Shown here one piece after another: positions 8,798-28,241 of a stretch of DNA of 34,612 nt. Below the pieces are notes generated by a model. It was not told the DNA's origin, ran no database searches, and saw only the letters and a program-made list of their open reading frames with translations. Made by a program: the position numbers and the translations under genes. Positions within the stretch are counted from its first letter, which is position 1. Every line of letters starts with the position of its first letter. Origin of the DNA: a virus (Duplodnaviria > Caudoviricetes). Location of the stretch: positions 1 through 34,612 of IMG/VR virus record IMGVR_UViG_3300047477_000152. The stretch is one strand, 5' to 3'.

Positions 8798-11700
8798 ATG
8801 CCCTTATACGACGTGCTCCAGAACAACCCAAACGCATTCAAGACTACCCCGAGCACCTACGACAGGCTGCAGGCCCAACCGCGCCCTGAGCCGATGACAG
8901 GGCTTGAGCAGGAGAAGCTCTTCGGCAATCCGTTGTCTCGCGGCCTCGGTCAAGCTGCACGTGGGATGAAGGGTTCGGTCAAGGCGTATGTGGCGTCAGC
9001 GCTCGACGCCATGGGCGCTGGCGAGACCGCTCAAGGGTGGTGGGATGGGGCCCAGCAGGATGCTGAACGTGCTGCGTTCGTCGCACCAGAGGTGCAGAGT
9101 ATTCGCCAGGTCAATGATGTGGATACAGCCGGGCAATACGCGCTCGGGGCGATAGGCAAAGGGCTTGCGTTTATCCCTGCCACGATGGCCGCTGCTGCTG
9201 CCGGTAGAGCGGGCTTGGGTCGGGCGATTGGCCCCACGGCGGGCGCGCACGTCGGCGGCGCGGCGCTCATGCTGCCCGCTGAGGGGGGCGAGGTGGCTCA
9301 GCAACTGCGCACAGATCCAGCTGCAGCTGGGATGAGCGCGGCGGAGAAGTTCGCACGCGCCACTGGTGTGGGTGCGATCAACGCAGGACTTGAGGTGCTG
9401 CCCGAGGCGGGCATGGTTAACCGCTTGACAGGCCGAGTGCCGGTAACGTCGCTCAGGCAGGCAGCGAAAGGTGCGGCAAAGGAATTCAGCCAGAATGTAG
9501 GCAAGGAGGTCCTTACCGAGACTGCGCAAGATGCTGTGGGCCAGTTGCATAACATTCAGTATGACGGAAGCAAGGCGTTCGACGCAGTTCAGTCAGTGGA
9601 CGCGGCTCTGCAAGGGGGCATCGGCGCAGGCCCGGTTGCGGCGATACACGCGCCCGTGGCTCAGGGCCTGGATCTACTGGCCGGCACAGGTAAGCTCGGT
9701 TCTGACGCAGTGCAGGCTGGTGGTAAGAAGATCAGTGACACCGCCATGAGCGCTCCCTCAACGGGTCTAGGTGACGCGTGGCACAGCTACCGTGAGCACC
9801 CGGAGCTGGCGCAGTTGATGAGCGAGCAAACGCTCCCGCCTGAGTTGGCTAAAGGCTCCGACCAAGACGTTCTGAACTGGGCCGCTGGTGACGACAACAA
9901 GCGCCGGGACGCGGCGCTGGTCATTGCCCAGCGCACGCTCACGAACCCTGCCGCCAGTGAGCAGGCCAAGGCTGAAGCACAGGGCTTGCTGAACAACCCA
10001 GGCGACCCGGAAGCATGGCGTCCGTTTGCCGGCGCTCTGGTGCTGCAGGAGAAGTCTCGCCGTGTAGGCGCGAACATCCGCGAAGCAGCGGAACAACTGG
10101 GTGCGAAGATCCCCAGCATACCCGAGGGGCTTGACGCTGAGACTGTGGCGAACAAGGCCGGTCTTGGTGTGCGAGCTGCCGCGCAGACGGTGAAGGCGGC
10201 TGCTGACGGCTTGAGCAAGAAGAACCTCGAACCCACTATCCAAGATCTGAATTATGCCCAGCTCATGGCACCGCGCATGGAGAAGGCCTTCGGTGGCCAG
10301 CTCAGCCCGGACGTGAGCACGGCGGCAGCCTCTGTGCTGAAGGATTATGTGCTCGGCGGCTTTGGTGTGGACGAACACGGTAACGTGACCGTGCCGCACG
10401 GTCTCACGGCAGCATTCGGCGCAGAGACCCCGGCAGTGGTCGAGCATGCGTTTGACCTGCTGCGCAGACAAGGGCGTGTTGACGAAGCTCTGGCGGCAAA
10501 GCTCGCTGACGTGAAGACGGCGGTGGAAGAGCGCTTGCCTAAGTACAAGCGGGCGACACAGGTGGTGTGGGACAACCTCGTGCCTGAGCAGATGGAAGCT
10601 GTGCCGTCAGAGGACTACCCCCACATTGCAGACAGCGTGCGGCGGTATCTGGACTCTGGCAAGAAAGACCCTGCCGCTGAGAAATATCTCGACACCCTGT
10701 TCGGGCCGAACAAGTCCAAGGTGCTGGAGCAGATCGACCTTTTGCACGAACGCGGGCAGCTCAAGGCGAAGCACTATGGTGAGGGGGTTGATGAGGCTGG
10801 CGTTCAAGAGAGCGACAACGCGGTTGAAGAAGATCACGACGCGCCTATTGGGGAGCGCGGGCCGAGCTACGACTATCACTTCGGAAGCAAGGCGGGCATG
10901 CCCTTTGACATGGAGCAGGGGCATACCCCTGAGCACATGATGCGGGTGTCTTCAGGGCTCGACGCGAGCCGCTACGCAACGCGCTATGACAAGAGCACAG
11001 GGAAAGACTATGTGCATGCTGAGCCTGTCGGCATTGTTGACTATGCGCGCCAGACCGGAGACGGCGCCGCACTGCAGAAGCTCTACAAAGAGCACGCGGC
11101 CGAGCGCGACCAGATCGGCGATGACGCACTGGACCGCAAACTGAACAGCCGGTACAAGGTTCTGCGTGCTCAGGAACTCATGGACGACGGGCATGATCAA
11201 GTTGACATTCGAGCTTCAGAACTAAAACGTCCTGCAACTATCAAGGGTGAGCCGAACAAGCGCGCGTGGTCAGATGTCACGGCAATTGGCACCAAGGATG
11301 TTTCGACCATCGAACATGGCCGTGTGTTCTTGAAGCAGAAGGATGGTGGCGAGTTCGTCACCTCCGCGCAGAAGCTCATCAGCAAGATGTGGGAGGCTAA
11401 ACAACGAGGTGCGTTCCAGGGCAGCACGGCGGAGCAGGCTGGAGGCAAAGACATGCTGAACATGTTCTCTGCCGGTCTTGCGTCGCTTCTCGCAACTGGG
11501 CAGTTCGAAGGCATGGACGTTCGTATGCCTGACGGCTCCATGCAGATCGCTGACAAGATCGACGACTTGCCCAAGAACTTCGTGTTGTTCACGAAGCCGG
11601 GTGGCGAGAAGGTTCGTATCTCGGATGTCATCAAGGCGACAAGCAAGGAGATCAACGAAGCACGTGCCGAAGAAAACCGCCTTGCTCGTGACCAGAAGAC

Positions 11701-14700
11701 CGGCGAACACTTCATCTACAGCACAGAGAAAGCAGCGCAAGCGCGAGCCAAAGAACTTGGTGACAAGACCTTTGCCGCCCCTTATCAGGATCGCTTCGCT
11801 GTGTTCGAGAAGGCCGGCGCTGAGATCCCGTCCGACAAGGTGCGCAAGACTGCGGGCGGGCAAGGCCACACCATCACTGAGACAGAAGAAATGGCCTCCC
11901 AGGCGGAAGCCAAGCTGGACAAGACCGAGCGCACTTTCGACGAGCTGACGGGCATTGAGCTACACCCGAAGGAAGGGCGGCTGGATCAACGCAAAGGGCG
12001 CATTGAACAACTGCGCCGTGATTACAAACAGGCGAACGAGCGGCTCAAAGAGTTGGTTGCGAAGCGCGAAGGGCAGGGCGGGAGCATTCAGAACCTGGAG
12101 AAGTTCCGCCCCAACGACGTGGTTTGGGCGGCGGTTACTCCGCGTGAAGAAACTGAAGACGGTCATGCCGTGGCTGTGTTCAAGGATTTTGGTCAGGCCC
12201 AGCGCTATGCTGAGCAGCGTGGTTTGAACACAGTGCAGGATCTGGCGATGAACCTGACGCCCCCGCCTGCACGAAAGAACGTGCCGCTTGAGCGCTCTAT
12301 CGCCGCGGCTCAACAGAAGCGCGACGCGTTGGTGGAAGAAGGCAAGCGCATCTCCGCTGAGTACAAGGCTGCTGCAGACAAGGCTGAGCCCAAGCGCAAG
12401 TACAACAGCGAGCCAGCGCGCAAGAGCGTCATGGACAACCCCCGCTTCGCCGCATGGTTTGGCGACAGCAAGATGAAGACCAAGGACGGTCAGCCAGCTG
12501 TGTTCTATCACAGCACCGACAACACGTTTGATGAGTTCGACACGCGCATGGCGGGGCGGAATACGGACCACGCCAGCACGGGCCTGGGGGTCTTCCTTAG
12601 CCCGAGCAAAGAGCGCAGCAAGGTGTATGGGCAGCATTCCATGGCGCTGTATGTGCGGATGGAAAAACCCTACAAGATGAGTGTTGAAGAGTTCAGCGGG
12701 TTCAAGGATCAGGCATCTGCAGCAGCGCGGCAAGCTGAGCTTCGTGCTCAGGGTTATGACGGCGTCTTCGTACCTGCGGACAAGACCACCATCGTGTTCG
12801 ATCCGACACAGCTCAAGTCCATCGACAACAACGGCAACTTCGGCATCTTCGACGCGAACATCAAGCGCAGTGTTGTCCCCGGTGACGCTACTGCGAGCTT
12901 CGCCACGCCTGAGCAAATCAAGGAGGCACAGGACTACGTGATCAAGACCCTCGGCCCGCAGATGCAGACTGAGTGGGTGAAGTCTTTCCCACACGGAGGT
13001 TCTGGTGAGTGGCAGCAAGGCATCATCCGCTTAGCCACCTCAGCCCTGAACCCGCTCTCCGTGGCGCACCACGAGAGCATGCACGAGCTGTTCAGCAGGT
13101 TGACTGCCGCTAAGCGCGACAAGGTCGCGCAGACTCTGCTCCAGGCTGCGAACAGCCCGCTGACTGTGCGGCGTCTTGAGCGGTTCTTCGCTGACGAGAA
13201 GTACGCCGCTGTGCGCGAGGCGATCAAGACTGACCCGGAAGAGCGGCTGGCATACATGTACCAACTGTGGGCTTCTGGCAAGATGAAGTTCGGCCCGGAG
13301 ACACAGACTGTGTTCCAGAAGGTCGCAGACTTCGTGCGCAAGATCACCGGCATGCTCACGAACGACCAGCGTGCAGAAATGATCATGCAAGCGTTCCATG
13401 AAGGCAAGATGGCTGAGCCAAACGCCATGGCGGAAACGCTCAACGATATTGACAGCCGTGGTCAGACGTTGCGCAGCATAGGTAAAAGAATGCAGCCCGC
13501 TGCGCGCAAGGCGCTTGAACTTGTAGCCACAGCCGAGAGCAACCTGGCCGCAAGCAGTAACCCCGCAGTGCGAGAAATACAGACGCTGTTCAGCAACAGC
13601 ACGGGGAGCACCGACAAGGGGCAGGGGTTCCTGCAAGCGCAGGTGCAAGCGAACAACCAATGGCTCAACAAGATGGGCACTGCGCTGCATGCGTCTGACG
13701 CAGTTGAAAAGGCTGACATCGCCGCGGCGCTTGAAGGGCTGCAGAAAGGTGAAAGCTCTACCGACCCTGTGATTGGCAAGATCCAGGCTGGCGTACGCAA
13801 GGTGCTTGATGACATGCACGAATATCTGCGTGAGGCTGACGTGCGTAGATTCGACAGTGAGAGCAAGCAGTGGGCGCCCATCGAGAAGGTACGTGACTAC
13901 TTCCCACGCAGCTGGGACACGTCGAAGCTGATGGCTGATGGCGACAAGTTTGTCGCGGCTCTGATCGAGCACCACAGTGACGCGCTGGTAGCCATCGCTA
14001 CCCAGGCGAACAAGGAGCGCGCTGCAGACGGTGACGCCGGCAAGTACACGGCCAGCTGGGAGAAAGCACAGAAGAACGACACCTCGGCGGTGACGCCGGA
14101 AGACGTGGCGCGGGCAATCCACCAGCGCCTGCTGAACAGCGACGGTCAGGCAGAGCTTGGTGAGCAGACCAATGCCCTTGGCTACACGCCAATGATGAAG
14201 GCGGTTAACCAGCGGACGTTGAACTGGATCGACATGAAGCACTTCTCCGACTTCCAGCGCAAGGATATGGTGCAGACGCTCACCACCTACGTGAACCAAG
14301 CTACGAAGCGTGCCGAGTACGCCCGCCTGTTTGGCGGAGACGGGGCCAAGCTCGAAGCGAAGATGACTGAGGCTTGGCACCACGAGATCGACAATCTGGC
14401 CAGGGAACAGTACGGTGTTGACAATGCCAGCGCGAAGGCTGCGCAAGCCGCTCGCTCACCTGATGAGTGGGAGAATCACCTGCATGACGTGCTGAAGGTC
14501 AGCAAGGCGGAGGCGCAGAAGCTGATCCAGTCTGGCCTGCAAAACCTCGAACCTGTACGCCGCGCTGTCATGGCCATGGAAGGCACACTGGGTCATGACA
14601 TCTCCCCGCTGCTCCGCAAGGTGAGCGCCTACAGCATCGTGTACCAGAACACCCGGCTCCTGGCGTACGCCATGTTCTCGAACCTCATTGACCCGCTTGG

Positions 14701-15667
14701 AATCATCGTGCGTGGCGGCGAGCTGAAAGACGCCTACAGCGCATTCAAGCGTGGCATGACAAGCGTGGTGCGCGAGTGGGGCGACATGACTGGTTTGCGT
14801 GAAGCGAAAGACGGCGACGTGGACGAGGCCACCCGCATAGCTGAGATGATTGGCACGGTGGATTGCGCCGGTTTCATGAGCACCATGGGTAACATGTACG
14901 GCTCGCAGTTCTTGCCGCAGTGGGCACGGAACTGGAACGACAACTTCTTCCGCTGGAACGGCATGGAGGCGTTCAACAAGGCCATGCGCGTACAGGCTAC
15001 CCAGGCTGCCATCGGCTTCATCAAGCGTCACGGCGGCGAGAAGACCAACGAGCACAGCGGGCGCTACCTGCGTGAGCTTGGCCTGACCGCTGAGGATGTG
15101 AAGGTGGGCGCGGACGGCAGGCTCAACGTGGAAGATCCGAAGATCCAGAAGGCAGTCATGCGTTGGGTGGATGGAGCAATCCTGCGCCCGAACGCCGCGC
15201 TGAGACCCACGTGGATGTCAGATCCTCACTACGCAGTGTTCGGCCACCTCAAGCAGTTTATGTACGCCACCCACGAAGTGCTGCTCAAGCGCATCGTGCA
15301 CGAGGTGAAGAACGGCAACACTGACCCAATGATGACGTTTCTGGCCGGGTACATCCCAGTCATGCTGGTGGCAGACTCAGCCAAGGGCATCCTTCAAGAG
15401 ATAGTCGGGGGCGGAACCCCGACGTGGCAGCACGACAGCGTCGGGGGGATCGTTGCGCACGGCGTTGAGAGAGCCGGTGGCCTGGGTGTTGCCCAAATGG
15501 GTGTGGACACTGTGAAGTACGGCCCCACCAGTTTGCTCGGACCGCAGGTTGAGCAAATCATGAGCGCGTTCAGCAATCCAGTGAACGAGTCCATCAAAGA
15601 AGCCGCGGGGGTTGGCCCCCTCAGCATCATGATGAAGGGCGCCAAGATGACGAACGTAGTGGACTGA
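8798..15667 (+). CDS. Large polyvalent internal virion/ejection protein with ART-like and HExxH metallopeptidase-like domains
   Basis: 2289 aa with a G/A-rich N-terminus. F..WFGDSK..DG.P.VFYH.T...FDEFD..G.FLS...YG..Y....P...GYDG.....IVF.PTQ.KS..N.GNF at ~12428-12870; HESMH at 13070-13084 followed by EERLA. C-terminal YFPR.W and F..LKQFMY motifs typical of large ejection proteins. Confidence 0.8.
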   Translation: MPLYDVLQNNPNAFKTTPSTYDRLQAQPRPEPMTGLEQEKLFGNPLSRGLGQAARGMKGSVKAYVASALDAMGAGETAQGWWDGAQQDAERAAFVAPEVQSIRQVNDVDTAGQYALGAIGKGLAFIPATMAAAAAGRAGLGRAIGPTAGAHVGGAALMLPAEGGEVAQQLRTDPAAAGMSAAEKFARATGVGAINAGLEVLPEAGMVNRLTGRVPVTSLRQAAKGAAKEFSQNVGKEVLTETAQDAVGQLHNIQYDGSKAFDAVQSVDAALQGGIGAGPVAAIHAPVAQGLDLLAGTGKLGSDAVQAGGKKISDTAMSAPSTGLGDAWHSYREHPELAQLMSEQTLPPELAKGSDQDVLNWAAGDDNKRRDAALVIAQRTLTNPAASEQAKAEAQGLLNNPGDPEAWRPFAGALVLQEKSRRVGANIREAAEQLGAKIPSIPEGLDAETVANKAGLGVRAAAQTVKAAADGLSKKNLEPTIQDLNYAQLMAPRMEKAFGGQLSPDVSTAAASVLKDYVLGGFGVDEHGNVTVPHGLTAAFGAETPAVVEHAFDLLRRQGRVDEALAAKLADVKTAVEERLPKYKRATQVVWDNLVPEQMEAVPSEDYPHIADSVRRYLDSGKKDPAAEKYLDTLFGPNKSKVLEQIDLLHERGQLKAKHYGEGVDEAGVQESDNAVEEDHDAPIGERGPSYDYHFGSKAGMPFDMEQGHTPEHMMRVSSGLDASRYATRYDKSTGKDYVHAEPVGIVDYARQTGDGAALQKLYKEHAAERDQIGDDALDRKLNSRYKVLRAQELMDDGHDQVDIRASELKRPATIKGEPNKRAWSDVTAIGTKDVSTIEHGRVFLKQKDGGEFVTSAQKLISKMWEAKQRGAFQGSTAEQAGGKDMLNMFSAGLASLLATGQFEGMDVRMPDGSMQIADKIDDLPKNFVLFTKPGGEKVRISDVIKATSKEINEARAEENRLARDQKTGEHFIYSTEKAAQARAKELGDKTFAAPYQDRFAVFEKAGAEIPSDKVRKTAGGQGHTITETEEMASQAEAKLDKTERTFDELTGIELHPKEGRLDQRKGRIEQLRRDYKQANERLKELVAKREGQGGSIQNLEKFRPNDVVWAAVTPREETEDGHAVAVFKDFGQAQRYAEQRGLNTVQDLAMNLTPPPARKNVPLERSIAAAQQKRDALVEEGKRISAEYKAAADKAEPKRKYNSEPARKSVMDNPRFAAWFGDSKMKTKDGQPAVFYHSTDNTFDEFDTRMAGRNTDHASTGLGVFLSPSKERSKVYGQHSMALYVRMEKPYKMSVEEFSGFKDQASAAARQAELRAQGYDGVFVPADKTTIVFDPTQLKSIDNNGNFGIFDANIKRSVVPGDATASFATPEQIKEAQDYVIKTLGPQMQTEWVKSFPHGGSGEWQQGIIRLATSALNPLSVAHHESMHELFSRLTAAKRDKVAQTLLQAANSPLTVRRLERFFADEKYAAVREAIKTDPEERLAYMYQLWASGKMKFGPETQTVFQKVADFVRKITGMLTNDQRAEMIMQAFHEGKMAEPNAMAETLNDIDSRGQTLRSIGKRMQPAARKALELVATAESNLAASSNPAVREIQTLFSNSTGSTDKGQGFLQAQVQANNQWLNKMGTALHASDAVEKADIAAALEGLQKGESSTDPVIGKIQAGVRKVLDDMHEYLREADVRRFDSESKQWAPIEKVRDYFPRSWDTSKLMADGDKFVAALIEHHSDALVAIATQANKERAADGDAGKYTASWEKAQKNDTSAVTPEDVARAIHQRLLNSDGQAELGEQTNALGYTPMMKAVNQRTLNWIDMKHFSDFQRKDMVQTLTTYVNQATKRAEYARLFGGDGAKLEAKMTEAWHHEIDNLAREQYGVDNASAKAAQAARSPDEWENHLHDVLKVSKAEAQKLIQSGLQNLEPVRRAVMAMEGTLGHDISPLLRKVSAYSIVYQNTRLLAYAMFSNLIDPLGIIVRGGELKDAYSAFKRGMTSVVREWGDMTGLREAKDGDVDEATRIAEMIGTVDCAGFMSTMGNMYGSQFLPQWARNWNDNFFRWNGMEAFNKAMRVQATQAAIGFIKRHGGEKTNEHSGRYLRELGLTAEDVKVGADGRLNVEDPKIQKAVMRWVDGAILRPNAALRPTWMSDPHYAVFGHLKQFMYATHEVLLKRIVHEVKNGNTDPMMTFLAGYIPVMLVADSAKGILQEIVGGGTPTWQHDSVGGIVAHGVERAGGLGVAQMGVDTVKYGPTSLLGPQVEQIMSAFSNPVNESIKEAAGVGPLSIMMKGAKMTNVVD

Positions 15668-15685
15668 GTGCGCTATGATTGAGGG

Positions 15686-16534
15686 ATGAAGAATAAAGGC
15701 TTCACCCTCGTAGAAATGGCGGTGGTATTGGTGATCATGAGCGCGGTCTCCGGCCTGCTGCTGTCCGGACTCAACGTGTTCATGACGCACACTCGAAGCG
15801 CCACCACACACGCCAGGCAGGCGGCTATCAAGAGTGCGTTGATAGCCTACCTCCGGGACAACAAACACCTGCCTTGTCCTGCGACCAAAGCTGACGGCGC
15901 GGCAGGCGACTGCACATCTCTGTCCGGTACGCTCCCATATCGCGAGCTTTCCATCCCCCAAGACGAAGCGCTTGACGCGTGGGGGAATCACTTCACCTTC
16001 GTTGTCACTAAAGACTGGACAGTCGCCGACACGTTCATCAAAGCACCGGATAAAACCAAGTTGGTTCAACTGGGCGACGAGCGCGCGGCAGTCGTCTTGA
16101 TCTCCCATGGTGACAATGGGGACGGGGCGATAAACGCACAGTACCAGCCCAACACGGCCCCGCCCGAGAGTAAGGTTGAAGAAACAGCCAACGCTGAGGG
16201 TTGCTCCCCGCGCTGTTACAGAGAGTCGGTCGCCGATGGCTTTGACGACAGGCTTGCCGTCTTCAGCCCGCAAGAGCTGCTTGAGCCCTTGCTTCAGCAA
16301 GGCTGGACGACAAAGAGCGATGCAGCGTGCGAGAGCTTTATCAACTCGATCATCCTCTCCAGCAAAGCAGGGCCGGCGCTCGGCAGCGTGCAGCTGACAA
16401 TTGACAAGGGAGCGCTTGTTGTCGGATCAACTGAGGAATGCGTGCTTCTGCCGGTGACGCCCCCTAAAGACTGCTCTGCCCCAATGGAGAGGGTGTGCTT
16501 GGTCTTGACTAAAAACGGAGTGTTCGCCAAATGA
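15686..16534 (+). CDS. Prepilin/pseudopilin-like protein (class III signal peptide)
   Basis: MKNKG|FTLVEMAVVLVIMSAV: G-1, F+1, E+5 and a hydrophobic helix. The LPCPA, GTLPY..L, DAWGN.F and LISHG.NG.G motifs match T2SS/MSHA-type minor pilins. Confidence 0.9.
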   Translation: MKNKGFTLVEMAVVLVIMSAVSGLLLSGLNVFMTHTRSATTHARQAAIKSALIAYLRDNKHLPCPATKADGAAGDCTSLSGTLPYRELSIPQDEALDAWGNHFTFVVTKDWTVADTFIKAPDKTKLVQLGDERAAVVLISHGDNGDGAINAQYQPNTAPPESKVEETANAEGCSPRCYRESVADGFDDRLAVFSPQELLEPLLQQGWTTKSDAACESFINSIILSSKAGPALGSVQLTIDKGALVVGSTEECVLLPVTPPKDCSAPMERVCLVLTKNGVFAK

Positions 16535-16731
16535 CCTTCGCTCAACGTGTAAAAGTCGCAGCAATGATCACTCCGGCGTTGATGCTGACGTTCTTCGGCC
16601 TGTTCGTCTGCTCACCGCTACCTAAGTCAGTGAACCTGTATCTTGGTTTCGCCCTCAGCCTGCTTGCCGCGTACAGCTGCGCACACTGCATTGTGATCGC
16701 AGCCTGCATGTGGCGTGATGCGAACAAATGA
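16531..16731 (+). CDS. Small two-TM membrane protein
   Basis: 66 aa, two hydrophobic segments; ATGA overlaps with both prepilin genes. Confidence 0.7.
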   Translation: MTFAQRVKVAAMITPALMLTFFGLFVCSPLPKSVNLYLGFALSLLAAYSCAHCIVIAACMWRDANK

Positions 16732-17294
16732 ATCAGCGGGGATTCACCCTCGTTGAGCTGGCGTTCGTAATTTTGGTCATCGGCGCACTCACAGCGGGCG
16801 TGCTTGTTGGTGGCAAACACCTCGTGCGTCAAGCGGATAAGAAAGCCTTTGCTGCCAAAGTTCAGAGCTTGGTGGCGGCGACATCGGAATTCCGAGATCG
16901 TTATCGCATGTACCCAGGCGACTTCATTGTGAACGAGACCGTGCCTGAAATCCCAAGGCTCAGTAAGCGCTGCCTGTCTGTCGGCCGAGGTAACGGCAAT
17001 GGGCTTATTGACGCGAACGAATCCACGTGTGCGAGGGAGCAACTCCTTGGCGCCGGGGTGCTTGAGGCCGCTGCGTTCGAGTTCAAGTTCCCGCAAGTCT
17101 CGCTCAGTTTTCTCTCCGTTCAAACAGCTGGTGTGCCCGTTGGCACGCTAAAAGCGAACGTGAGGAACGTGGTGGTGTTCCAGAACCTGCCGTGCTACCT
17201 GACCCAGGCTGTGCCGAGCGGGGCGGTGATCACAGGGGTATGTTCGGTTGATGACGAAGACGTGGAAGTCCAGTTTGCAGTAGCCGCACAGTGA
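16728..17294 (+). CDS. Prepilin/pseudopilin-like protein (class III signal peptide)
   Basis: MNQRG|FTLVELAFVILVIGALTAGVLVG, then F.DRY..YPGD and GNGNG.ID motifs; four Cys. Confidence 0.9.
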   Translation: MNQRGFTLVELAFVILVIGALTAGVLVGGKHLVRQADKKAFAAKVQSLVAATSEFRDRYRMYPGDFIVNETVPEIPRLSKRCLSVGRGNGNGLIDANESTCAREQLLGAGVLEAAAFEFKFPQVSLSFLSVQTAGVPVGTLKANVRNVVVFQNLPCYLTQAVPSGAVITGVCSVDDEDVEVQFAVAAQ

Positions 17295-17385
17295 TGGGCT
17301 CTTCGCACGGCGGAGCCGTAATATATTGGACAAACTCGATTATATTGGACTGACAGAGGGTGTCAGATGCCCCGAAAGCCGCATG

Positions 17386-17408
17386 AATAAAGGCTCCCGC
17401 AGGAGCCT
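17386..17408 (-). terminator. Putative intrinsic terminator downstream of the tRNA half
   Basis: Minus strand AGGCTCC-TGCG-GGAGCCT followed by TTATT. Confidence 0.55.
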
Positions 17409-17423
17409 GAATTTTCGGTAATG

Positions 17424-17464
17424 GGATTAACAGTCCGGCGCTCTACCGACTGAGCTATCGAGGA
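17424..17464 (-). tRNA. 5' half of tRNA-Asn(GTT); truncated, probable att core
   Basis: Minus strand TCCTCGATAGCTCAGTCGGTAGAGCGCCGGACTGTTAATCC gives the acceptor 5' strand, D arm (GCTC/GAGC) and anticodon loop CTGTTAA. It then diverges, with no T arm (GTTCGA) or 3' acceptor strand. Confidence 0.9.
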
Positions 17465-17487
17465 AAATCAACAACGTAGCTTCAACT

Positions 17488-17564
17488 AGCTGTCCAATAT
17501 ATCGTCTCTCTGACGGTATCTGAGTGACGTTTTGACGCCCTCTCTGAAAATATATTGGACAGCT
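17488..17564. repeat. 15-bp perfect inverted repeat AGCTGTCCAATATAT/ATATATTGGACAGCT
   Basis: Arms at 17488-17502 and 17550-17564, extendable with 2 mismatches to 17481/17571. Confidence 0.9.
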
Positions 17565-17583
17565 CGTTGCAGCGAGGAAGCGA

Positions 17584-17612
17584 ATTCTAGGTGGTGATCT
17601 CCGGGCTGTCAA
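17584..17612 (-). promoter_or_regulatory. Near-consensus sigma70 promoter pointing at the tRNA half
   Basis: Minus strand TTGACA (17612-17607), 17-bp spacer, TAGAAT (17589-17584). Upstream sequence is AT-rich. Confidence 0.85.
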
Positions 17613-17625
17613 CCTTGGTCTTTAC

Positions 17626-17656
17626 AAAAAGAAAGCCCGGACGAATCCGGGCTTTT
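17626..17656 (-). terminator. Intrinsic terminator ending the leftward early operon (possibly bidirectional)
   Basis: Minus strand AAAGCCCGGA-TTCG-TCCGGGCTTT-CTTTTT, 20 bp after the stop at 17677. Confidence 0.9.
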
Positions 17657-17676
17657 AAAGGGCTGAGGGGAGGGAC

Positions 17677-17934
17677 TCAGCCGTACTTGCGCATGTCTCT
17701 CGCTGACTCCTGCTTGTCCGCTTTGGCGTTGGCCATATCCTCCAGGTGACTTGCGAGCAACTTCTCGAACGCTCGGTCCTCCAGAGCTTTGACGACTTTC
17801 GATTCAAGCAGCTCGATGACGGACTCACCTTTGTGCTGCACGTCTTCCAGCTCGAAGTCCTCAATGTCGTGGAACGTGCCCAGGACAAGGAACTCAACAC
17901 CTCCAAGCGTGATGCTTACTTCACTCGTATTCAT
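17677..17934 (-). CDS. Hypothetical phage protein
   Basis: Last gene of the coupled minus-strand run before the terminator. Confidence 0.7.
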   Translation of the reverse strand: MNTSEVSITLGGVEFLVLGTFHDIEDFELEDVQHKGESVIELLESKVVKALEDRAFEKLLASHLEDMANAKADKQESARDMRKYG

Positions 17935-18275
17935 GGCTTGTCCTTAACTAGAACCTTGAAACCAAGGTAAGTCACTCTCGTAAGACTGTCGTACGAGAAA
18001 GGTTGGGAGCACGAATTAGCCTTCATCTTCAAATAGCAAAGATCCGCTTCGTCAAGCATTAACGCGTCAGGCTCACGCTGCATATGTTGAACCCCTAGAC
18101 TCAAAACCTTCATCATGTCGTAGTACGGGTCATCCGCTGGCGAGAAGGTTCCCGCATGCAATATCTGGATCTTTTTACCGTCCGTTTTACAAACTGTGTA
18201 AGCCGTCTGCTCGTAACCCGGTCTCCCCAGGTCAATACCCAGCATGTACTCAGGTAAGTTGTCACTCGTATTCAT
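17931..18275 (-). CDS. Hypothetical protein (more AT-rich; possible insertion)
   Basis: ORF from ATG 18275 (or GTG 18284), flanked by a 14-bp direct repeat. Confidence 0.6.
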   Translation of the reverse strand: MNTSDNLPEYMLGIDLGRPGYEQTAYTVCKTDGKKIQILHAGTFSPADDPYYDMMKVLSLGVQHMQREPDALMLDEADLCYLKMKANSCSQPFSYDSLTRVTYLGFKVLVKDKP

Positions 18276-26844: not shown

Positions 26845-27047
26845 TCGTCGTTCCCCTCAGGTTCGCCGTGATCCTCGGGGCGGCAGACTGCGCTGACGGT
26901 GTACGCGCCGTCCCCGCTCAGGACGCGGTCTTCGAGATTCGGGCTGACCTCAAGCCACCTGAAGTAGCCCTGGCACGTATCCAGGGCGATGTCCAGAATG
27001 TCGCCGAAGAAGTCTTCGGTCATGTTGAATTTCAGGGTGATTGTCAT
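26841..27047 (-). CDS. Small acidic hypothetical protein
   Basis: ATG overlaps the integrase stop. Confidence 0.55.
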   Translation of the reverse strand: MTITLKFNMTEDFFGDILDIALDTCQGYFRWLEVSPNLEDRVLSGDGAYTVSAVCRPEDHGEPEGNDE

Positions 27048-28024
27048 TTTCTCTTCTTTCCAGGCTCGACCAGGTCCGTCTTACGAGCCCTGATATAAGC
27101 CTCGGTCATAGTGATACTCTTGTGGCCGAGAAGTTTCTGTGCGGAAGCCGCGTCGTCCATGTCCGTGGCAACCATGCCGCGAAGGTCATGCTCCGTGAAC
27201 CGGTCGTTTCCAGCTGATACGAACGTCGCCATCAGTCGCCTCCAGATCGAGCCGAAACCCTGTGACGTGTACTGAGTGCCCGAGCGAGTTGGAAATAGCA
27301 GCGGCGATGATTTCGGCAAGCGACTTAAAATCTCCTGCAGTTCTGGAGTCAGCCGGATGCGGATCCGCTTTCCGGTAGAGTTCTTGGTTTTTTGAGGACA
27401 TAGGTGTATTCCTTGGTTGTCAATATCAACCCACTTGAGCGCGAGCATGTCTTGCTGGCGGGCACCAATCAGTGCTTTGAGATCCAGATAGGTCTGGAGC
27501 CACGCGGGGCACAGGCTCTTGAACGTCGCCAGTTCTGTCGAGGTGACGTACCGAGTACGGGGCCTCTCTCGCGCACGAAGCCCTGGAACTGCGCAAGGGT
27601 TATCCGTGCGTAAGCCCCACCTGATTGCGTAATTGAAGATGTGGGAAAGGAGCGCAATCTCACGGTTGCCTCTTGTCTTCGCTTCGCGGGCATCACGATA
27701 CGCAGCGACGTGTACTGCGGTGACCTGTGTGACGTGCATCTCTCCAAACGCCGTGCGAAGAAAGCGTAGTTCTTGGCGATTGTCCTTCTGCGTGCGCTCG
27801 GCTTTTCCCGGCACAACTTCGAGAAGGTATCGGTCAAAAAGCTCAGCCATGATCTCAGTTTGTGTCGGTGCGATGACAAGAGTCGACCATTTCGCCATTG
27901 CTTTGGCATAGTCACTGTCTAGCCTTTCCCATTTACCAGTTGCTTTGTGAACGAAGTAGTACGCCCCGTTGCGGTGATATACCCGCTCAGGTAAGTCTTT
28001 TCGTTTTGTTCTTGCGCGTCCCAT
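27044..28024 (-). CDS. int: Tyrosine recombinase / phage integrase
   Basis: N-terminal arm-binding-like LPERVY...GAYYF. Catalytic residues R (GARQQD), K (QKTK), HDLR, LGH, Y (TEAYIR). Confidence 0.95.
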   Translation of the reverse strand: MGRARTKRKDLPERVYHRNGAYYFVHKATGKWERLDSDYAKAMAKWSTLVIAPTQTEIMAELFDRYLLEVVPGKAERTQKDNRQELRFLRTAFGEMHVTQVTAVHVAAYRDAREAKTRGNREIALLSHIFNYAIRWGLRTDNPCAVPGLRARERPRTRYVTSTELATFKSLCPAWLQTYLDLKALIGARQQDMLALKWVDIDNQGIHLCPQKTKNSTGKRIRIRLTPELQEILSRLPKSSPLLFPTRSGTQYTSQGFGSIWRRLMATFVSAGNDRFTEHDLRGMVATDMDDAASAQKLLGHKSITMTEAYIRARKTDLVEPGKKRK

Positions 28025-28241
28025 TTTGCATGCCTCGTTGAAGATCTTTCAGAGCGAATAGGTTCGGCTCAGATTTTGTCAGAGTCTTGGGCGAGCTAAT
28101 TAGCGCTGCGCGTAATACGCGCGGCCAGTCGTCTGCGCCAATAAGGAGAACGGGCACCCCGTATTCGCGCAATATCTTCAAGACAAGTGAGGGACGACGA
28201 TACCCCGTCAACTCGCAGAGTTCGTCTTTTGACAGAATCAT
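27987..28241 (-). CDS. xis: DUF4224-like excisionase / recombination directionality factor
   Basis: LS.DEL.ELTGY.RPS.....L...GVP.......PRV.R ... EPN..AL; overlaps the 5' end of int. Confidence 0.8.
   Translation of the reverse strand: MILSKDELCELTGYRRPSLVLKILREYGVPVLLIGADDWPRVLRAALISSPKTLTKSEPNLFALKDLQRGMQNGTRKNKTKRLT
28045..28096. promoter_or_regulatory. Tripartite operator-like motif, copy C, inside xis just upstream of int
   Basis: TCTTTCAGA-N11-CGGCTCAGA-N3-TGTCAGAG. 28075-28096 matches 31423-31444 at 19/22 positions. Confidence 0.55.

Follow-up and report, generated by a model that had tools for sequence, protein, structure and literature searches.

By homology and gene context, two prepilins encoded by a temperate phage belong to one of two alternative minor-pilin modules of a host filament machine related to the MSH pilus. 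The phage was detected in freshwater and wastewater samples. The window analysed is the whole 34,612-nt stretch of its DNA, with the virion genes on the left and the replication genes, integrase and excisionase on the right. We detected a KPP25-related podophage: the overlapping record G002 supplies its major capsid protein, which shares 66% identity with the KPP25 protein, and the C-terminal part of the 2289-aa protein of the last virion gene (8798..15667, + strand, phrog_30152) is 42% identical to KPP25. Residues 1229-1345 of this protein form an ART-PolyVal ADP-ribosyltransferase-like domain, found likewise in the U. gangwonense homologue.

The last virion gene is the left border of the cassette insertion, which consists of three + strand genes, A (15686..16534), B (16531..16731) and C (16728..17294), joined by ATGA overlaps at 16531 and 16728. 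Gene A starts 18 nt past the virion gene, in the direction of the late operon, and encodes a 282-aa minor prepilin ("A-long", MKNKG/FTLVE, the slash marking the cleavage site) with a variable C-terminal domain. Gene B encodes a membrane protein of 66 aa with two helices, from an unnamed family, and gene C a 188-aa prepilin ("C-minor", MNQRG/FTLVE). An earlier note on this DNA had read the cassette as two class III prepilins flanking a two-TM protein, and the ORF coordinates, PF07963 and two hydropathy peaks in B bear this out. Its placing of the cassette between the last virion gene and attP agrees with the phrog_30152 gene upstream and an attP-like tRNA-Asn half downstream. No prepilin peptidase, ATPase, platform or secretin match was found among the 48 window ORFs scanned, as the note had also stated.

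The cassette is not an assembly chimera, because single contigs from four other studies run across it. Contigs of three studies cover the region from the virion gene to the att core (14500-17453) with 46-62 differences from the window, and a contig of the fourth covers the cassette and attP (15600-17700) with 33 differences. Freshly excised host DNA was rejected as well: the best bacterial-genome matches to A are at most 39% identical, and the cassette GC3 (0.65-0.70) lies inside the range of phage genes (0.57-0.72). Both refuting scenarios thus failed; the earlier proposal of a phage-owned pilin moron that depends on a host machine is supported. In the fourth-study contig 17 of the 24 cassette SNPs are synonymous, with pN/pS ~0.13 from this one full variant list. 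The cassette is under purifying selection and was kept intact across divergence to 36-52% identity. A 341-nt deletion variant (17921-18261) occurs in three studies, and 15726 is followed directly by 17233 in one low-depth contig, which may represent a cassette-deleted or different allele.

Comparison with the cassette-free relative L149 marks the cassette as an accessory insertion, because L149 has an empty site at the same position, where the stop of the virion gene is joined straight to the motif that follows C elsewhere. This motif, a conserved TGGGCT(C/T)TTCGC element with a hairpin (17295..17318, + strand), is present in the window, L059 and L149. By sequence, the cassette has the character of a phage moron, an accessory insertion missing from relatives at the same site, and the promoter and terminator expected of a moron are represented by sequence predictions, a -10 box before A and downstream hairpins.

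In the attP-like region (17320..17561), four arm-type repeats surround the 5' half of a tRNA-Asn, the att core (17424-17465, - strand), which is identical to the U. gangwonense gene at 41 of 42 positions. All four window copies of ATATTGGAC flank this core, and the phage genes on both sides of it fit the attP reading; ARAGORN found no whole tRNA in the window. A predicted sigma-70 promoter, TTGACA-17-TAGAAT (17584..17612, - strand, 11/12 consensus matches), would drive the host tRNA after integration, and a predicted terminator within the attP-like region (17391-17408, - strand) would insulate the cassette against the host tRNA promoter. A second 11/12 sigma-70 match (17339-17366, - strand), antisense into gene C and overlapping an arm repeat, may reflect antisense control or chance. 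The window integrase and excisionase (27044-28241) lie ~10 kb from attP (17320-17612). L149 and the U. gangwonense prophage have the integrase beside the phage arm and other att-like sequences than the window, which we take to resemble tRNA and tmRNA 3' ends. Two fragments in G001:C32 (108245-108362), 95-96% identical to the prophage virion gene and ~500 bp from tRNA-Asn, may be what an earlier member of this prophage group left behind.

PF07963 was detected above its cut-off of 21.2 bits in A (28 bits) and C (24.5 bits), and TIGR02532 was also above cut-off in both. Their sequences carry the type IV prepilin signal, a class III G/F-x-x-x-E motif with a hydrophobic helix, and PilD/GspO-type cleavage and methylation would be expected. 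According to the structure models, both fold as type IV pilins, with a long alpha-1 helix (8-59 in both) and a globular head. For A (pLDDT 80.6, with a low-confidence C-terminal domain, pLDDT 45-54 over residues 231-282) the nine top matches of the fold comparison were all pilins, with a middling best Z of 7.0 (rmsd 3.5, 143 aligned), and Foldseek gave nothing at E<=0.001. Weak ferredoxin-like matches of the low-confidence domain were set aside. For C (pLDDT 93.4) Foldseek matched 9iuf (E 4.4e-4), and the top fold matches were again pilins (best Z 7.5, also middling; rmsd 3.4, 113 aligned). Of 1681 candidates, 144 are homologous to A at E<=0.001; A is 61-69% identical to three close relatives over residues 6-59 and 13-18% over residues 206-282. 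C-minor pilins form a clade separate from the major-like pilins (SH-aLRT 96), and C is, by sequence, paralogous to the presumed major pilin of the MSH-related machine, where "major" and "minor" are labels drawn from gene position and distribution. The full-length relatives of A and C are unnamed proteobacterial prepilins; no match to A or C was found among 50,697 GenBank phage records, nor to A among plasmids.

T2SS pseudopilins (GspG-K) were rejected, with TIGR01710 at 27.8 and 21.5 against a cut-off of 88.85 and TIGR01708 at ~22 against 80, and so was a T2SS placement, as the homologues of A and C sit in msh-like clusters and not in gsp operons. FimU homology was also rejected: the relatives are A-long and C-minor proteins, the GspH model gives 22 bits against 80, and the FimU chain 4ipu has Z 3.4 for A.

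Among 435 candidates, 98 proved to be B homologues, the family having 52 representatives at 50% identity; B scores 15.5 bits against a profile made without the four closest phage-type copies, while 500 shuffles reach at most 7.4. No Pfam or NCBIfam match was detected for B, and ESM Atlas gave no family (best score 0.88). The family was found in 17 loci, ten of them on contigs of one metagenome scan and most of these short, and in none of the four native clusters. When A, C and B were modelled as a complex in which B was the partner, the score was 0.00 ("no answer"), which counts neither way.

The assignment to the machine comes from gene context. A-C pairs occupy the minor-pilin slot of mshM-L-N-E-G clusters in four loci (L037, L067, L069, L070). 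The native cluster order is mshM-L-N-E-G, PilM-like, PilO-like and a small protein, with labels assigned by us except for L, E and G, which are backed by NCBIfam/Pfam matches. The host cluster encodes MshL above the TIGR02519 cut-off, MshE-, MshG- and MshM-like proteins and a c-di-GMP motif; no prepilin peptidase was seen in the MSH-related loci. These components are shared with the MSH (MSHA) pilus of Vibrio and relatives as outlined in PMC6668835, whereas the gene order and pilin set differ from the canonical MSHA cluster, and MshA was not identified in the host cluster. A immediately followed by C, with or without B between them, was found in 28 of the 41 loci having any match, and loci that cluster in the A tree also cluster in the C tree. 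The slot is occupied in other genomes by a PilX-like protein together with A-short, a shorter A paralogue, or it is empty. MshL is over cut-off in 15 of 20 genomes with a full-length A-family match and in 0/14 controls; the MSH-related cluster type is present in 17 of the same 20 and canonical clusters only in one, the inspection of cluster type having covered all except two. Canonical-order MSHA clusters often co-exist with the MSH-related cluster, including in U. gangwonense. Genome G006 has no minor pilin in the slot and a free-standing A-C pair, apparently its only A-long/C-minor supply, and G008 has none right after the cluster and a free-standing A-B-C; these empty slots with free-standing copies fit action in trans. 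The earlier note had named a type IV pilus or T2SS as the required machine; the dependence on a host machine stands, the T2SS and the ordinary type IVa pilus do not by homology, and the MSH-related cluster takes their place.

The "stand-alone" label was rejected for L066 and L068, which both lie within a native cluster, inverted. In two gammaproteobacterial genomes the A-C pair is inverted in or beside the native minor-pilin slot (L157 7771-9635, L158 13170-14971). A gene for a major-like pilin of this machine is present on a T4-like viral contig (L025 7995-8651), and L184 (7989-8592) has a split copy of the major-like pilin.

We infer from the nearest prophage and the att core that the likely hosts belong to the U. 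gangwonense family, where the exact att core is present in 64 of 251 genomes. The machine marker was found in 187 of the 251 and A+C in six (five with the head-only profile), the six being counted from nine matches after two major-like pilins were removed; in these searches 12-16 candidates were scored for each genome, and many of the genomes are incomplete. By hand count, the 64 exact-core genomes include 48 with the marker and one with A+C. As the marker is common and A+C rare, the phage would usually bring a tip set that the host lacks. The search of the 251 genomes for the phage gave one match, the U. gangwonense prophage. In U. gangwonense the prophage A-long/C-minor pair is the only such pair found; the native slot contains a single divergent A-short (FFLVE), and one query for a PilX-like partner gave no match there.

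The U. gangwonense DSM 18521 prophage is syntenic with the window phage over ~22 window ORFs at 36-70% identity and ends in A-B-C (A 36%, B 52%, C 38%). P0002, P0220 and P0124 share one 24,620-bp contig, likely a third copy of the cassette. Three lambdoid viral contigs carry A-B-C (L180), A-B (L013) and A alone (L181). Every phage copy has A, and no other gene is shared by all of them; the A-C pair is not obligatory in phages, because L181 has A alone and L013 lacks C. A starts 1 nt (L013) and 9 nt (L181) past the repressor gene, and ~400 nt past a repressor-like ORF in L180. On the 41-row tree the phage copies of A branch at three separate positions (single clade rejected, p-AU 1.7e-5), so by phylogeny the cassette genes are carried separately by three phage groups. 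A and C of the window-phage group are each monophyletic and each sister to L060. Locus L060 adjoins a Type ISP enzyme and the PDC-M71 candidate defence pair, and L071 adjoins PDC-M05, the neighbours given to PADLOC being picked from island-like loci. The position of A behind repressors and the defence-gene neighbours suggest a defence signature. No PADLOC model matches A, B or C, and several free-standing copies (L029, L034, L063, L064) lie among housekeeping genes, not defence genes.

Several free-standing A-B-C cassettes (L029, L065, L071, L079) have a divergent helix-turn-helix gene of 130-137 aa upstream of A. The record names Bordetella (L061) and Streptomycetaceae (L071) seem at odds with the genes present and may be labels left by binning.

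For the regulation of the cassette, we predicted a -10 box, TATGAT (15674..15679, + strand), 6 nt before the ATG of A, and TACCAT is present at the same spacing in the U. gangwonense prophage. TAnnnT at 5-8 nt was found upstream of 0/33 other window starts (background 1.8%), and no GGAG-type ribosome-binding site precedes A. This pattern, based on two sequences, suggests a leaderless promoter separate from the late operon; no -35 was found, the consensus scan did not list the -10 box, and among other A genes the box recurs clearly, by eye, only in L074. Transcription was not seen in runs X5, X17, X19 and X20: X19 and X20 contain essentially the tRNA core alone, X5 has what looks like flat whole-phage cover and may be DNA, and X17 (guessed RNA, may be DNA) gave two short low-depth contigs in B-C.

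Our best reading, to which we give about an even chance, is that the lysogen makes a replacement filament tip that leads to superinfection exclusion. The lysogen would transcribe the cassette from its own predicted promoter, a host PilD-type peptidase would process A and C, and both would enter the tip of the host MSH-related filament, displacing the usual minor pilins, with B probably acting as an assembly helper; phages binding the original tip would be stopped. This reading is suggested by the lysogeny-type positions in unrelated phages, the defence neighbours of two loci, the conserved helix with a variable distal domain and the P-FimU precedent. The need of the related Kochitakasuvirus for a type IV pilus, outlined in 10.64898/2026.02.22.706922, also speaks for it. 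P-FimU, a pilin encoded by F10-like Pseudomonas aeruginosa prophages, is described in PMC12952977 as entering the pilus and blocking phages, and the earlier list of precedents for phage pilus interference, all non-pilin inhibitors, has to be corrected in this respect. Both systems, as far as the main account of P-FimU goes, involve a temperate phage, a full-length minor pilin whose class III signal peptide is intact, dependence on the host machine, an own promoter (predicted here) and variable distal parts. In contrast to the single gene in the F10-like tail operon, three genes follow the last virion gene here; A and C are not FimU homologues, and their machine is MSH-related, not a type IVa pilus. 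The cassette occurs in the KPP25-related podophage group and three lambdoid phages. Since the module is missing from most searched host-family genomes, it would be an alternative tip set and not a mimic of a universal subunit. The cassette would work like P-FimU if the reading holds, yet it is not a P-FimU member.

Several results count against tip replacement. The Kochitakasuvirus data come from the type IVa pilus of Pseudomonas. When seven tail-end genes of KPP25 were compared with this phage, a homologue was detected for ORF087 alone (27%, lying outside the window); a search for the KPP25 tail fibre that covered the window, the 8-kb extension and the U. gangwonense prophage gave no homologue. 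The MSH-related machine may be a secretion pseudopilus rather than a phage receptor. The housekeeping surroundings of some host copies and the non-obligatory pair in phages also speak against this reading.

Exclusion could also be dominant-negative: A, with the help of B, would enter the assembly site and block or reduce filaments, so that the receptor is removed. A as the one gene shared by every phage copy, the occurrence of B only away from the machine and the disruption of pilus assembly by FimU overexpression, reported in the text of PMC12952977, would fit such poisoning, which we still consider unlikely, as the same pair fills the native slot in four clusters and serves G006 as its apparent supply, and full heads with paired cysteines are kept under purifying selection where a headless peptide would be enough. 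Lysogenic conversion for host fitness, in which the module adds or restores a working tip (adhesin, substrate specificity) and has no anti-phage role, seems to us improbable to the same degree. The prophage supplies the only A-long/C-minor pair of U. gangwonense beside a native slot with a single A-short, and hosts retain free-standing copies among housekeeping genes; the repeated placement behind phage repressors, the sister locus beside restriction and candidate defence genes, and the relative L149, which manages without the cassette, argue the other way. It is far less probable that the pilins act through the shared N-terminal helix on another filament (type IVa pilus, canonical MSHA or T2SS), for U. 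gangwonense has 33 prepilin-motif matches in several clusters and the phage's relatives use the type IVa pilus in Pseudomonas, whereas the MSH-related cluster is favoured by homology over the full length and by gene context, with GspG and GspH models far below cut-off. A neutral or late-expressed passenger with no role in the lysogen would explain the late-operon direction close behind the virion gene and dispensability in L149, and is very hard to reconcile with the low pN/pS, the intactness across divergence and the carriage by three phage groups.

Tip replacement also differs from other known phage effects on pili. PilA-like proteins of Xylella prophages and truncated PilA in lytic Pseudomonas phages, as summarized in PMC12952977, are likewise type IV pilins carried by phages, with a proposed effect on the receptor, whereas theirs are single and major-pilin-like and the window cassette encodes a minor pair. 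Zip (PMC12952977) and Aqs1 share prophage control of the pilus receptor for exclusion, in these accounts as non-pilins binding assembly proteins, unlike the pilins A and C. TfpY, a membrane pilin accessory encoded beside a pilin, aids assembly and gave no phage defence in the experiments outlined in PMC11841053; the likeness of B, also a membrane protein encoded beside a pilin, is one of analogy. We found no published description of this module or machine in searches that covered few subscription journals; the supplementary tables of PMC12952977 list further phage pilins, which may bear on this.

Taken together, these data allow a broader hypothesis, which we consider tentative and less probable than tip replacement itself: an MSH-related filament, near-core in the U. 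gangwonense family, would have two swappable tip modules, the rare one being a mobile anti-phage cassette of unrelated temperate phages and defence islands, with B as the adaptor displacing the resident tip. If true, prophages would switch receptors by whole modules, and phages of betaproteobacteria from wastewater and freshwater would use the MSH-related filament as a major receptor. The cultured lysogen U. gangwonense DSM 18521 has the cassette as its only pair copy, so expression, incorporation and exclusion are directly testable there, and the cassette gives a genetic handle on a common and apparently unstudied MSH-related filament. If the tip-replacement reading holds, prophage receptor replacement would no longer be confined to one Pseudomonas subunit but would also involve a tip module of several genes, another class of filament and several groups of phages.
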